Sequence record: MN445185.1
From: Escherichia phage vB_EcoM_EC001
Strand: one strand, 5' to 3'
DNA length: 64,000 nt
Part shown: piece after piece, positions 8,084 to 34,586 of the stretch
Position numbering within the stretch: position 1 is the first letter of the stretch
How the letters are laid out: each line of letters opens with the position of its first letter
Made by a program: the position numbers and the translations under genes
The notes under the pieces: model-generated
What the model was told of the DNA's origin: nothing
Databases searched by the model: none
What the model saw: only the letters and a program-made list of their open reading frames with translations

Positions 8084-8124
8084 CCCTACCTAACTTCGGT
8101 TAGGTAGGGTTCTTTTTATTTTTA
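8084..8124 (+). terminator. Rho-independent terminator
   Basis: Stem ccctacctaac / gttaggtaggg with ttcg loop, then a T-run. Confidence 0.75.
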
Positions 8125-8143: not shown

Positions 8144-8596
8144 GTGTTTCAATGTTCAGTCGTCAATGATGCGGAATTGGCCGTGTACAAGCAGCGCACA
8201 ATCCGGGCGCTGGATGCTGAAAAACCAGTCGATGTTAAAACGCGTGCAATCATTAGGGCATTTAGCGAATGGCCGAACATCGCAACCGTTTGGGCATTCA
8301 CGGGAGAAGTTCGCAAAGACGGAGACAAGCTTCGTACACGTAGACACCACAGCTTAACATTTGTGGCAACCGAGGCGGGTCTTAAAGACATTAACCATTT
8401 ATTAGAAGGATGGCAGCCGCACGAGTACGGGAAACGTTTTCAGTTAAACTTTACTTGGCTGCGTCAAGAAGGCAATGCGAATCTCTGTTATCCAAGCTGG
8501 ACGTTTAGACTCAACTATCGACCCGACCCAGATGTGGTGGAAAGTGTGATGGAGCACTGGCTCGCACTCGCAATTTTTACAGAACACAACCATTAA
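8144..8596 (+). CDS. Hypothetical protein
   Basis: GTG start with GAGGG SD. Confidence 0.55.
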   Translation: MFQCSVVNDAELAVYKQRTIRALDAEKPVDVKTRAIIRAFSEWPNIATVWAFTGEVRKDGDKLRTRRHHSLTFVATEAGLKDINHLLEGWQPHEYGKRFQLNFTWLRQEGNANLCYPSWTFRLNYRPDPDVVESVMEHWLALAIFTEHNH

Positions 8597-8624: not shown

Positions 8625-9095
8625 ATGCCAGTTTTATACGGCGGCGTGGACCTGGATGTTCTGGGTCGGTTTAAACTACGAACGTCTAAGGCGCTCGTAA
8701 ACGGTTGGGTTGAGAAAGGCGTACGGGATGCGTGTGAGGTCATTTGTAGTTATCCTGGTGCCACGACAATGTGGTCGTGTCATGGACACGGACCATATTC
8801 TAAAAAGAACACACCGGGGGAATTTCATGTGGTGTTCGTTCTTGGCATCGGCTTTGAACACAAAGCACATGAGCTTGTCGCTGAGTTAATGAAAGCGGAT
8901 ATTCCGCCACTGTGGGATTTGTGCATGGCGAGACTCTTGTACCCTGATGAGGATTTCGTCTACGACCTCAGCGAGATCACCCTGAAGAACACGTATAACG
9001 CATGGAAAATAACGTATCGGCATCTGCATACCGAACAAACTCTTCGCGAAATTCGTAAAGTATTCCACACTGTCTGTAAAAAGGTTTTTAACTAA
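8625..9095 (+). CDS. Hypothetical protein
   Basis: AAGGAG SD. Confidence 0.6.
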   Translation: MPVLYGGVDLDVLGRFKLRTSKALVNGWVEKGVRDACEVICSYPGATTMWSCHGHGPYSKKNTPGEFHVVFVLGIGFEHKAHELVAELMKADIPPLWDLCMARLLYPDEDFVYDLSEITLKNTYNAWKITYRHLHTEQTLREIRKVFHTVCKKVFN

Positions 9096-9793: not shown

Positions 9794-10002
9794 TGAATCT
9801 ACGTTGGCCGATCGCGGCTGCTGTGTTGTTTTGTATTTATATCGCCATCAGCACCAGTACCCGCACTGCAGAACGTCGCGAGACCGCAACCAGTACGTTT
9901 AGGATGTGCATTGACCGCGTAGACCCGAACAGTACCACTTATCCTGACGCGGTGAACGCGTGTCGCAAAGCGGTTGCTGAGATATTGAAAGAGGAAAAAT
10001 AA
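9793..10002 (+). CDS. Small hypothetical protein with N-terminal hydrophobic helix
   Basis: ATGA start/stop overlap; hydrophobic segment PIAAAVLFCIYIAIS. Confidence 0.5.
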   Translation: MNLRWPIAAAVLFCIYIAISTSTRTAERRETATSTFRMCIDRVDPNSTTYPDAVNACRKAVAEILKEEK

Positions 10003-10229
10003 TGGAAAACCTTACGCCGATTGAGATAGTGGCGCTATTCGACCGTTACGTATACGGACAAACGCAGGCAAAGAAAATGCTGGCGATTGCGCTACGTAAT
10101 CGATATCGTGCCAATAAACTCAACGTAGTGGACCGTATGTCGGTCCACAAACAGAACCTTTTAATAGAAGGTCCAACAGGCACGGGTAAAACGGCGTTGA
10201 TGCGTGAAGAAAAACAGAAACAAAAGTGA
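10002..10229 (+). CDS. Truncated HslU/ClpX-like AAA+ N-terminal fragment (75 aa)
   Basis: LTPIEIV..GQ..AKK.LAIALRNRYR and Walker A GPTGTGKT resemble the HslU N-terminus; ORF stops just after the P-loop. Confidence 0.6.
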   Translation: MENLTPIEIVALFDRYVYGQTQAKKMLAIALRNRYRANKLNVVDRMSVHKQNLLIEGPTGTGKTALMREEKQKQK

Positions 10230-10237
10230 GGTAAAGG

Positions 10238-11245
10238 ATGGCGAAGCTCGTTTCGTTTTCAGCAGGGTTGGATTCCACCTGGATAATGTATCAGCTGCTA
10301 TGCAAAGCACCGGCCAATGAAGCACGACATGTCCGTCCTGCGTATTTCTCCATGTGGAATGGAGGTAACGCGAACTTCATGGAAATTCTTTGTAGCGTGG
10401 CCATTGTTGAACGGTTGATGGATAGACACCATGCACAAACCGAACATGTTACATGGGCGGTGCTCGGGGAAGAGAACTTCCAGCCTGTCGTTACCGCTGG
10501 ATATGCTAACGGCTGGTCGCCTCTGGTTCAGCAGGGCAATGTTGTTAACGGTCTCGCTAAACTGATGTGTGGTATTACGCGCAAACAGCACCACGCCTAT
10601 GCAGTTGTTGGTTGGAATAAGCTAGATGCGTTGGAGAATAGTCTAGAGCTGGGAGATTGGACATTAGACGAGTACGCTCGCTTAAAGAACCTCTATAGCG
10701 AATTGATGTATTTCCAAGATCATGCCGGTCGCGTTCCACCGCTTCTAACACCTGCGTGGGATAAAGAGAAACTGGAAATGTGGCAGGAGTTGCCGGAAGA
10801 TATTCGTAGGTTGGTACAGGTCAGTAACAACAACAACTACGAATTCGCGATAGACCGTGAGAATAACGTGCTCATCGTTTATGCCCATCCGTCGGCAAAG
10901 TCGCAGAATTATCGTAGTCTTGGTATTACACCGTCAGTGGGATGGGAGATTAAAATCAACGATGCTTACAGACGGGTATGGTGTTCTGCTCTCGGTAGTG
11001 CTATTTCTGCTATGGGTTTGGGCGTACCGGCTTTTGCTAACTTTAAGGACCCGGAAAGAAACCACACGACCTTTACGGTAAGTGAAGATACTAACCGGTT
11101 ATGTATCACATCGTTTACCGCGGAAGAGTGGTGCGCGTATGCGCCACATTTTAAAGCGCTTCAGGAGAAAGAAAAAGAGATAGCGAAAAATGCCAAAGCA
11201 AGTAAAGCTGTGGACGCTCCAACTGGCGAAGTGGCGGATAGCTGA
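10238..11245 (+). CDS. Hypothetical protein with divergent PP-loop-like motif
   Basis: N-terminal SFSAGLDST resembles the SGGxDS PP-loop; GAGG SD. Confidence 0.55.
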   Translation: MAKLVSFSAGLDSTWIMYQLLCKAPANEARHVRPAYFSMWNGGNANFMEILCSVAIVERLMDRHHAQTEHVTWAVLGEENFQPVVTAGYANGWSPLVQQGNVVNGLAKLMCGITRKQHHAYAVVGWNKLDALENSLELGDWTLDEYARLKNLYSELMYFQDHAGRVPPLLTPAWDKEKLEMWQELPEDIRRLVQVSNNNNYEFAIDRENNVLIVYAHPSAKSQNYRSLGITPSVGWEIKINDAYRRVWCSALGSAISAMGLGVPAFANFKDPERNHTTFTVSEDTNRLCITSFTAEEWCAYAPHFKALQEKEKEIAKNAKASKAVDAPTGEVADS

Positions 11246-11573
11246 AAAACGGAATTTGCCAAAGCTGGATATAACGGTTAAGTCGGGGCTGAAATATTTG
11301 GCACCCGACTGGGACTTTCTGATGGACTACAAGAAGTCTGACAAAGGCCCCGACGCAGAAGCTGCGTATACCAAACGCTACCTGCAGAAACTTAGTCGGT
11401 TGTTTGATGAAGACACTGATAAGTTGATAGAGATTCTCCGCCAGGGCGAGGTCGTACTAATGTGCTATTGCCCACCGGGGAAATTCTGTCATCGCCACTT
11501 GCTAGTTTCTTACCTTATTGAAATCGGTGAGTGGTTCGGTTATGAAGTAATTTACATGGGCGAGTTATCGTAA
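11190..11573 (+). CDS. DUF488-like hypothetical protein
   Basis: C-terminal MCYCPPGKFCHRHLL resembles the DUF488 signature; overlaps the upstream gene by 56 bp. Confidence 0.5.
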   Translation: MPKQVKLWTLQLAKWRIAEKRNLPKLDITVKSGLKYLAPDWDFLMDYKKSDKGPDAEAAYTKRYLQKLSRLFDEDTDKLIEILRQGEVVLMCYCPPGKFCHRHLLVSYLIEIGEWFGYEVIYMGELS

Positions 11574-11584
11574 GGAGAGTCCTC

Positions 11585-11980
11585 GTGAAATTGATTATGC
11601 CTAAAACCGTTCCTAATCAGGATATGGTTACGACTACACTGTTTTCTGAATCATTACGCAACTCTGTACGTCAGACCGCTTCACGTCTAGACGTGGCAGT
11701 TGAAGAACTCGACCCAGAAGTCTTCATGAAGTATGCGTTTATTGCAGAAGGTTACGCGATCGCCCTGAGTTATGCGCGGTATGTCGATGACGTGACAGAA
11801 GCTAAACGTTATTTAGAAGGCTGTTGTCAAGTTTTCCGTGAAGAAATCACCGAGATGGAGATGGTTGACCGTGGCTTACCTGAATTTGTAAAGGTGGGTT
11901 ACGATAAGCTGTTGCAATCCATCGCGGATGAGATCAAACGTCGCGGGTTAACTGTTGTGCACAGTGCTACACTGCACTAA
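11585..11980 (+). CDS. Hypothetical protein
   Basis: GTG start with AAGGAGAG SD. Confidence 0.55.
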   Translation: MKLIMPKTVPNQDMVTTTLFSESLRNSVRQTASRLDVAVEELDPEVFMKYAFIAEGYAIALSYARYVDDVTEAKRYLEGCCQVFREEITEMEMVDRGLPEFVKVGYDKLLQSIADEIKRRGLTVVHSATLH

Positions 11981-11993
11981 CAGCGTACGAGTA

Positions 11994-12035
11994 GGCTACC
12001 ACACGATCATATGTGTGGTAGCTTATTTTTTTGTT
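11994..12035 (+). terminator. Rho-independent terminator
   Basis: Stem ggctaccacac / gtgtggtagc, then a T-run. Confidence 0.65.
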
Positions 12036-12048
12036 TCTGGAGGCGTTA

Positions 12049-12588
12049 ATGGCAGACCGCTATCAGCCCGACCTAACACTGAGTTCAAAAGCGCTAGTCT
12101 TAGCGCTTATCAATCATGACAATAATCTGTCACTTACTGATAAAGAGATTGTGATTAGGGATATTGATGCGAACGCTTCACCAGACATCATCCCGAAGAA
12201 CACACAGGCAAGCGTGGCCAAAGCACGTAAGCCAAATGGGAAAACCGTGACAGTCTATTATGACCGGTTAAGTGCGTCTACCGTGCTAGACAGTTTTCAG
12301 CCGCTATTGGTGTCCTTAGACGGAACCGAAACGGACATTCAGCAAATTGCCAGTGTGATTAACGGTTACTGCGGTACAAACTTGTCAGCAGCAGACTTAC
12401 AGTCTGCGCCAATCGTGGTCAGCGACGATTTTACCCTGGTGAATATCACTGGCGATTCCCCAGCATGGCTTGGGACATTTATCGCAACCCTGTTTACCAA
12501 AAATGAGTACGTTCTTTCAACTGACACTGACACGGTGCTGTGTCTGGATGAGAACACTGTGCTCGTACTGACTGACGAGGAAGAGTAA
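12049..12588 (+). CDS. Hypothetical protein
   Basis: ATG 12049 with GGAGG SD; track TTG start 12031 lies in the terminator T-run. Confidence 0.6.
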   Translation: MADRYQPDLTLSSKALVLALINHDNNLSLTDKEIVIRDIDANASPDIIPKNTQASVAKARKPNGKTVTVYYDRLSASTVLDSFQPLLVSLDGTETDIQQIASVINGYCGTNLSAADLQSAPIVVSDDFTLVNITGDSPAWLGTFIATLFTKNEYVLSTDTDTVLCLDENTVLVLTDEEE

Positions 12589-13073
12589 TGGCCAGCCCAG
12601 TTAAAAAGCAAACATTTGAGAGCTTACCATTTTATACCGATATCACCAACGTGAAAGATGGGATGTTCTTGTTTATCAAAGATGGGAAAGCGTATCAGTA
12701 CCCGCTCGAGATGTTGGGTGTCCAGAAGGTTGCTCAGGGTGTCGTTATTCGTGATGCGGCGTATGAGTTGGAAGCGGCAGCAGCCACTGATTGGTACCTA
12801 GGACTGTCGCAACCGGAAACCGATCTCACTATTAAACCTGATGGAGTATTGGGGGCATTTCGGTACACGCTCAACCTGACTATTCTTCAGGGAACGGGAG
12901 CCAACAAAATTAACTGGCCTTCCAACGTGAAGTTCCCCCATGATGCATACCCGGTGCTGTCGTACCAGAAAGGGAAATCGGACATGATTACCCTGACTAC
13001 AATCGACGGCGGTTACACCTGGAAAGGTGGCGTTAGTGGAACAGGATATACAGAATGGGTAGAAACTCCTTAA
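12588..13073 (+). CDS. Hypothetical protein
   Basis: ATG overlaps the upstream stop. Confidence 0.6.
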   Translation: MASPVKKQTFESLPFYTDITNVKDGMFLFIKDGKAYQYPLEMLGVQKVAQGVVIRDAAYELEAAAATDWYLGLSQPETDLTIKPDGVLGAFRYTLNLTILQGTGANKINWPSNVKFPHDAYPVLSYQKGKSDMITLTTIDGGYTWKGGVSGTGYTEWVETP

Positions 13074-34538: not shown

Positions 34539-34586
34539 CAGGAGACTTCATGGGGTTGTATAGCGCACTTTACCATAACAGCTAAA

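Follow-up and report, generated by a model that had tools for sequence, protein, structure and literature searches.

Two overlapping genes were examined in a 64,000-nucleotide (nt) stretch of Escherichia phage vB_EcoM_EC001 (sequence record MN445185.1), which is referred to as the window and whose positions are used throughout. The upstream gene, here open reading frame (ORF) A, probably encodes an active enzyme of a so far unclassified branch of the PP-loop (N-type ATP pyrophosphatase) superfamily, which is restricted to jumbo phages, is not QueC, and is co-expressed with the DUF488-N3a protein encoded by ORF B; we give this reading a probability of roughly 0.6. Salmonella phage JN03 matches this region at 97.6% identity and phage SPN3US at ~95%; both belong to the genus Seoulvirus, i.e., 240-kb jumbo phages related to phiKZ. 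In RefSeq, the SPN3US orthologs gp119 and gp120 are labelled "hypothetical protein" and "DUF488 family protein", respectively, and literature searches found no mention of either. The two genes and their main motifs are:

10238..11245, plus strand: ORF A gene, 335 amino acids (aa), QueC-like protein of the PP-loop ATP pyrophosphatase family; ortholog of SPN3US_0119 / YP_009153413 (gp119); PHROG 8825
11190..11573, plus strand: ORF B gene, 127 aa, DUF488-N3a; ortholog of SPN3US_0120 / YP_009153414 (gp120) and of phiKZ gp151
11190..11245, plus strand: dual-coding overlap of ORF A and ORF B, 56 nt
10253..10279, plus strand: PP-loop motif S6-F-S-A-G-L-D-S-T14, variant of SGGxDS[ST]
10529..10540, plus strand: Q98-Q-G-N101 block; Q98 invariant, Q99, G100 and N101 conserved
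10610..10642, plus strand: G125-W-N-K-L-D130-A-L-E133-N-S block; G125 invariant, W126 and D130 nearly so; in the place of QueC ..D..GYPDC, with no YPDC
10748..10783, plus strand: T171-P-A-W-D-K-E-K178-L-E-M-W block; P172 and K178 invariant; equivalent to QueC TPLMWLNKAETW
10811..11242, plus strand: C-terminal region, residues 192-335, made up of a beta-hairpin and a helix bearing the invariant K221, an alpha/beta part specific to the clade, the long helix 295-325 and, as its disordered tail, ..GEVADS
11463..11495, plus strand: C92-Y-C94-P-P-G-K-F-C100-H-R102 motif of ORF B, putative Cys/Arg active-site loop of DUF488-N3a

An earlier, sequence-only reading of this DNA had described a 335-aa protein beginning with SFSAGLDST and a next gene overlapping it by 56 bp and carrying a CxC..CHRHLL signature. 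Indeed, ORF A starts MAKLVSFSAGLDST, the overlap covers 11190-11245 (56 nt), and ORF B carries CYCPPGKFCHRHLL, within MCYCPPGKFCHRHLL. In the six frames of the window, about 0.03 occurrences of S[AG]GxDS[ST] were expected and 2 were observed, the second SAGxDSS string (54116+) being a chance match in an ORF of 83 aa that runs antisense within a structural gene of 1376 aa. The pattern C.C.{3,6}CHR occurs a single time in the window.

Within the overlap, both frames are coding: the ORF B N-terminus is conserved, and an ORF A-type tail is kept beside a different downstream gene. Specifically, the ORF B frame encodes the segment (V)KLWTLQLAKWR, common to phiKZ gp151, and the ORF A frame encodes a tail of the form ..D.P.GEVA.S, similar tails being found in relatives whose overlapping downstream gene differs. 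The overlap measures 56 nt in SPN3US, 53 nt in locus L005 and 1 nt in L010. The ORF A tail (11191-11242, plus strand) is predicted to be disordered and could serve as a short linear motif that directs docking, import or degradation; relatives at 32-38% identity have the similar tails DGKVAES, NGEVAQG and GKKEVATE. In the Wellingtonvirus-type arrangement (L003, 6932-7423; L027, i.e., Erwinia phage Kwan, 2416-2916), the 3' end of the PP-loop gene overlaps the gene of an unrelated 163-166-aa protein, not DUF488, which has no Pfam match and is followed by an HslU-like ATPase gene.

Single-sequence searches with ORF A gave no meaningful match in Pfam, NCBIfam, PADLOC or PDB sequences, and the PDB matches returned by phmmer (poxvirus H7 and a haloacid dehalogenase, E>0.02) were discarded as noise; against PHROGs, the protein matched PHROG 8825, a group of unknown function. 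Its homologs formed 17 clusters at 90% identity, and a profile search of 1.84 billion representatives recovered 48 clusters (50% identity); a profile search of a 5.8-billion-protein set added no named relatives among the matches listed. A 12-sequence alignment used as query for related loci retrieved only 4 close jumbo-phage loci. By tblastn, the family occurs in SPN3US-, Erwinia- and Aeromonas-type jumbo phages, and every genomic context examined was a phage or a phage-like contig.

From the same 12-sequence alignment, AlphaFold2 modelled ORF A with a predicted local distance difference test score of 84 and a predicted template modelling score of 0.86, and the predicted structure has the Rossmann-like alpha/beta/alpha nucleotide-binding fold of the PP-loop superfamily. 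The nearest solved structures are those of the QueC-family proteins Cap9 and QueC; the family profile also picks up Cap9 (E=2.5e-5), QueC and TilS by sequence. In this profile, the PP-loop of ORF A aligns to those of Cap9, QueC, TilS, LarE, nitrile synthetase and argininosuccinate synthase, and in the model the segment S8-A-G-L-D-S13 directly follows a predicted strand (E2-6). Moreover, the TPxWDxxKxEMW block of the family aligns by hidden Markov model (HMM) to TPLMWLNKAETW of QueC (PDB 2pg3) and to Cap9, conserved Lys included. Close relatives never depart from G10, L11, D12, S13, T14 and W15. The alignment of 48 sequences has the consensus AFSGGLDST and shows no variation at G10, S13, Q98, G125, P172, K178 and K221. 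The motif is therefore more than a chance string, because G10-L-D-S-T-W is invariant among close relatives, G10 and S13 are invariant in all 48, and the predicted fold is that of a PP-loop protein. The identification of the family by the sequence-only reading stands.

The C-terminal region (residues 192-335) had no match to any solved fold. Since distant relatives match the profile only up to about residue 240, the conserved core comprises the PP-loop domain and the hairpin-helix with K221, the rest being clade-specific. The family is acidic (median isoelectric point 5.8) and has no conserved Cys column in the 48-sequence alignment (maximum 11/48, at an unrelated position). No THUMP, OB-like barrel, TilS C-terminal or other recognisable RNA- or DNA-binding domain was found in ORF A.

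The same earlier reading had called the motif a degenerate SGGxDS. The first glycine is indeed replaced by alanine here, but the motif shows no decay and is a clade variant of the canonical SGGLDST/TGGLDST: relatives at 32-38% identity read TGGLDST, the first-Gly position also takes T and C in other members, and the Ala is kept across 52-95% identity within the ORF A clade. We consider the Ala a clade-specific variant, not decay, because the rest of the family is canonical and the position tolerates T and C. This bears on the proposal that ORF A is a catalytically dead PP-loop-fold scaffold of structural, regulatory or decoy function, beside which DUF488 is present by mere inherited gene order. 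The replaced glycine, the lack of any curated family model recognising ORF A, the restriction of the DUF488 linkage to one clade, and a surrounding transcription unit whose genes are all of unknown function would agree with such a protein. However, G10, D/E12, S13 and K178 are invariant or conservatively kept even where identity drops to 15-20%, and SGGxDS is canonical in most members; unless the protein binds nucleotides, this conservation of ATP-binding positions is hard to account for. Taken with the Ala being conserved within its clade at a position that varies elsewhere, we consider a dead scaffold decidedly unlikely.

In a 2026 survey of PF06508, canonical QueC proteins are described by SGGxDS, a C(x)8CxxCxxC zinc motif, YxQxHxxE, VPxRN and YPDC (PMC13082051). 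Of these, ORF A retains the PP-loop but, from the other motifs, just the Glu (E49) and the Asn that ends VPxRN (N101); it reads VQQGN where QueC has VPxRN, and D-A-L-E-N-S where QueC has YPDC, and the zinc motif is absent across the 48-sequence alignment. Judged from motif order, the Q98-Q-G-N101 block appears to sit at the position of the VPxRN loop. Furthermore, QueC proteins (PDB 3bl5 and 2pg3) have ~220 aa compared with 335 aa in ORF A, which gave no match to Pfam PF06508; the best family member (P0017) reached 14.6 bits against a cut-off of 22. Among the annotations of the complete RefSeq record of SPN3US there is no FolE, QueD, QueE, DpdA or TGT, so that the queD/queE/folE context of QueC is lacking there. 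Radical-SAM genes of the window and of SPN3US were considered as QueE candidates and rejected, being of SPASM peptide-maturase-like type; in the window they are:

42841-44166, minus strand: radical-SAM/SPASM-type enzyme, 442 aa, with CNLDCEYC and a Cys-rich C-terminus; its best NCBIfam similarities are to maturases of ribosomally synthesised and post-translationally modified peptides, all below cut-off
44162-44953, minus strand: radical-SAM-like protein, 264 aa, overlapping the 442-aa gene and lacking the CxxxCxxC triad

Such a pair (42841-44953) is unusual for a lytic jumbo phage; no target peptide was found for it. A true QueC-type enzyme, making a 7-deazaguanine derivative for hypermodification of phage DNA, would be in line with the presence of QueC among the top structural matches and with the label "7-cyano-7-deazaguanine synthase" given to P0017 by the Joint Genome Institute. 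Against it are the sub-threshold score of that very member and the absence of a match for ORF A, the missing C(x)8CxxCxxC, YxQxHxxE (Glu alone left), VPxRN and YPDC motifs, the lack of annotated pathway and transfer enzymes in SPN3US, and window radical-SAM genes of peptide-maturase type, not QueE; we therefore regard it as extremely unlikely. The hint of QueC-type chemistry leading to modified phage DNA, also made from the sequence, is accordingly not borne out, as the zinc site and the motifs related to 7-carboxy-7-deazaguanine are absent and FolE, QueD, QueE, DpdA and TGT are not annotated in SPN3US.

The other nearest structure, Cap9 of type IV cyclic oligonucleotide-based antiphage signalling systems (CBASS; PDB 9nto_B), is a minimal protein of ~185 aa that keeps the zinc motif, Y/FxQ(x)5E, RN and YxDC (PMC13082051). 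ORF A has none of these Cap9-retained motifs, has an extra 140-aa C-terminal module, and has no CD-NTase partner. By analogy with Cap9 and QatC, ORF A might be a protein-modifying ligase, adenylating a carboxylate of a small molecule or of a protein terminus that is then ligated to a protein; the target might be a phage or host protein, perhaps one linked with the HslU-like unfoldase and the S80-like protease paralog encoded next to the gene in relatives. This is improbable, since PADLOC defence HMMs gave no Cap9 or QatC match (none for ORF A or three relatives; for one distant member the generic QueC model gave E=0.016), neither the zinc motif nor the QueC motifs that Cap9 retains are present, and no CD-NTase, QatA, QatB or QatD lies nearby. 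In addition, the N-termini of the adjacent DUF488 proteins (MPKQVKLW, MAKWRKV, MEISIW...) lack a conserved glycine tail, and in the window the PP-loop gene is intact whereas only a 75-aa stretch of the HslU-like gene remains.

Other PP-loop families were likewise distinct. The GMP synthase ATP pyrophosphatase domain and YcfA share no significant similarity with ORF A outside the PP-loop; the GMP synthase motifs QGTxxPDxIES, KDEVR and RxPFPG are not present as such, nor is a glutaminase partner or a dimerisation domain. The tRNA thiolases (ThiI, MnmA, TtcA/TtuA/NcsA) have a catalytic or iron-sulfur-ligating Cys, whereas the ORF A family has no conserved Cys.

The DUF488-like assignment of the downstream gene was upheld, ORF B matching Pfam PF22751 (DUF488-N3a) with E=7e-12 and 46.1 bits against a cut-off of 27. 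It also scored 28.3 bits against PF04343 (cut-off 22.2) and only 14.9 bits against the "inactive" model N3i. The Cys...Cys-His-Arg loop that marks the "active" DUF488-N3a subclade is present, and 22 diverse sequences all share T29, A38, P39, Y60, C92, C94, F99, C100, H101, R102, G124 and E125. Homologs were found by tblastn in 289 phage records across phiKZ-like (Chimalliviridae-type) phages, including PhiPA3 and phiKZ (PHIKZ151); ORF B is 39% identical to phiKZ gp151, with all invariant residues in common. ORF B is thus unremarkable within a family that is named but has no known function, and the overlapping upstream PP-loop gene is what is particular to its clade. The "GIY-YIG" label on the DUF488 gene of Erwinia phage Kwan is a misannotation, the product being a 116-aa DUF488 protein with no fusion. 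For the RapZ-C/DUF488/DUF4326 clade, Burroughs and Aravind reportedly predicted in 2023 an action on sugar or phosphate groups of NAD derivatives and on nucleic-acid ends. The related DUF4326 has been placed in the rhodanese-phosphatase superfamily by the Aravind laboratory (PMC9503650). Through this kinship, ORF B would be expected to have a Rossmannoid fold of the rhodanese-phosphatase type. In phiKZ, one antisense oligomer against PHIKZ151 raised plaque-forming units about tenfold, and the knock-down strongly changed phage transcript levels at 30 min (PMC12571901).

Regarding the relationship between the two genes, ORF A and ORF B belong to one tightly packed eight-gene unit with strong terminator hairpins at both edges:

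8084..8109, plus strand: intrinsic-terminator-like hairpin at the upstream edge, 11-bp stem followed by a T-run
11989..12028, plus strand: intrinsic-terminator-like hairpin at the end of the unit, 17-pair stem followed by a T-run, after a 131-aa gene (11585-11980)

This terminator-bounded unit, together with the 56-nt overlap, argues for co-expression and possibly sequential action. PP-loop and DUF488 genes are linked in 9/15 loci, down to ~25% PP-loop identity, and after rearrangement they still lie 0.7-2.8 kb apart in L019, L003 and Kwan. Only the SPN3US/Erwinia-type clade has the two genes no more than 3 kb apart. No DUF488 gene was detected within 5-12 kb of the distant PP-loop members L012, L017, L018, L020 and AhC3_1; the genes directly downstream of distant members were considered as cryptic DUF488 genes and rejected, and are also mutually unrelated. 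Several distant members lie among ligase, RNase H, SbcC and thymidylate-kinase genes. In the genomes of Salmonella phage SPFM (LR535901-LR535913; hits H103-H110, H129, H133 and H140), both genes appeared as 3-7 broken, frame-shifted tblastn pieces, which resemble frameshift errors introduced by assembly or sequencing more than true pseudogenes.

Several points weigh against our reading of ORF A and its association with ORF B. No Pfam or NCBIfam model recognises ORF A, its placement derives from a structure predicted from a shallow 12-sequence alignment and from weak profile matches mostly in the first ~55 residues, and the first Gly of SGGxDS is Ala. The preference for a class of substrate, discussed below, is drawn entirely from negatives (acidic isoelectric point, no known binding domain). 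As for coupling, tblastn found the PP-loop gene in 67 phage records compared with 289 for DUF488, in no Pseudomonas phage, and likewise not in most phiKZ-like carriers of DUF488; in phiKZ itself no PP-loop gene was detectable beside DUF488, and in SA002 both genes are present 107 kb apart. PHIKZ152 (gp152), directly upstream of the phiKZ DUF488 gene, was considered as a divergent PP-loop relative and dismissed, with no HMM and no Pfam match. Since the PP-loop gene is the rarer one, the SA002 genes are apart and distant members have no nearby DUF488, the adjacency may be a single ancestral arrangement inherited within one clade. ORF A is probably autonomous, and functional coupling of the two proteins is tentative, at about one chance in three.

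If the two proteins did act together, a split ThiI-like transfer might be envisaged, by analogy with the PP-loop and rhodanese pair of ThiI and with YcfA and its sulfur donor in 6-thioguanine synthesis. ORF A would adenylate a base carbonyl of RNA (e.g., tRNA or a phage transcript) or of a nucleotide, and the cysteine loop of ORF B, as a persulfide or other covalent carrier, would deliver the group. ThiI, however, combines THUMP, PP-loop and rhodanese domains, whereas ORF A lacks a THUMP or RNA-binding domain and a catalytic Cys in its PP-loop domain, and its partner is a separate DUF488-clade protein, not a classical rhodanese, in a partnership that is not universal. The 289 DUF488-N3a records compared with 67 for the PP-loop gene imply that DUF488 works without it in most phages, and distant PP-loop members lack a nearby DUF488. 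ORF A is acidic, with no THUMP or other RNA-binding module, and the phiKZ phenotype came from one of two antisense oligomers. Also against sulfur transfer, the Aravind laboratory is said to have predicted phosphate or sugar chemistry for the DUF488 clade. On balance, a split ThiI is unlikely. If true, an RNA-acting pair of this kind would explain the outcome of the phiKZ DUF488 knock-down, with altered phage transcripts and a higher phage yield. The bolder version, in which the overlapping pair is a new type of two-protein nucleic-acid or nucleotide modification system, in which cysteine-free QueC-like adenylation is followed by transfer of sulfur or some other group from the DUF488-N3a protein, with phage or host RNA as the target and phage gene expression tuned in this way, is in our view quite improbable.

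Under the preferred reading, of ORF A as an active PP-loop enzyme outside QueC, the chemistry can be outlined by analogy. The PP-loop S-A-G-L-D-S-T would most likely bind Mg-ATP, and ORF A would most likely move AMP onto a carbonyl or carboxyl oxygen of its substrate with release of pyrophosphate, after which a nitrogen or sulfur nucleophile would most likely displace the AMP. A family-specific pocket (E49, Q98, W126, D130, W174, K178 and K221) and the C-terminal module would replace the zinc-cysteine lid and the substrate motifs of QueC, and the enzyme would be expected to make neither preQ0 nor 7-deazaguanine DNA. ORF B would be a co-expressed cysteine-loop enzyme that may act before or after ORF A. 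ORF A is acidic, lacks a conserved Cys and shows no recognisable domain for binding RNA or DNA; its substrate is therefore more likely to be a small molecule resembling a nucleobase, a nucleotide or a protein terminus than a nucleic-acid polymer.

The remaining features of the neighbourhood concern the upstream part of the unit:

8144-8596 and 8625-9095, plus strand: tandem paralogs of 150 and 156 aa, both matching PHROG 7413 (function unknown), first in the unit of ORF A and ORF B
10002..10229, plus strand: 75-aa remnant of an HslU-like AAA+ ATPase, directly upstream of ORF A, stopping just past the Walker A motif (GPTGTGKT)

The remnant matches positions 2-70 of the 552 of phrog_4339, and its AAA matches cover the Walker A motif only; full-length HslU-like genes of 572-580 aa adjoin the PP-loop gene in L003, L005 and Erwinia phage Kwan. 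In SPN3US, this slot holds a Peptidase_S80-like 161-aa gene and a 110-aa gene in place of the HslU-like gene, and an "HslV family peptidase" is encoded at the genome start. The position just ahead of the PP-loop gene is a variable hot spot.

Just 3' of the terminator, the genes at 12031-13073 (plus strand) encode a DUF7941 virion protein (185 aa) and a 161-aa protein; they show high identity only with JN03 and Lh1B, and in most other Seoulviruses the megablast similarity ends near 12117. This suggests that a tail or host-range module was exchanged. Further along, at ~34560-34568, ~3.4 kb of SPN3US (128317-131765), comprising three genes with RefSeq tags gp115 to gp113, is absent from the window. 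This gap falls within a long array of paralogous "virion structural protein" genes, and looks like a deletion or an unequal recombination between paralogs.

QueC-fold PP-loop enzymes have recently been found in unexpected roles, i.e., protein deazaguanylation in type IV CBASS and in QatABCD defence. The PP-loop superfamily itself is well known; the ORF A family is uncharacterised and falls outside Pfam, NCBIfam and the 2026 survey of PF06508. It would be a further branch of the QueC fold, on the phage side, set apart by its altered pocket, the absence of a zinc site and a new kind of C-terminal module. Nucleus-forming phages in general conserve DUF488-N3a, so that its translational coupling to a probable adenylating enzyme in one clade offers a useful entry point, and the amber-mutant genetic system of SPN3US makes the question of ORF A and ORF B testable. 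Knowledge of the substrate would give the ORF A gene of these jumbo phages a function, and could bring to light a new way in which nucleobases, nucleotides or proteins are modified during infection.

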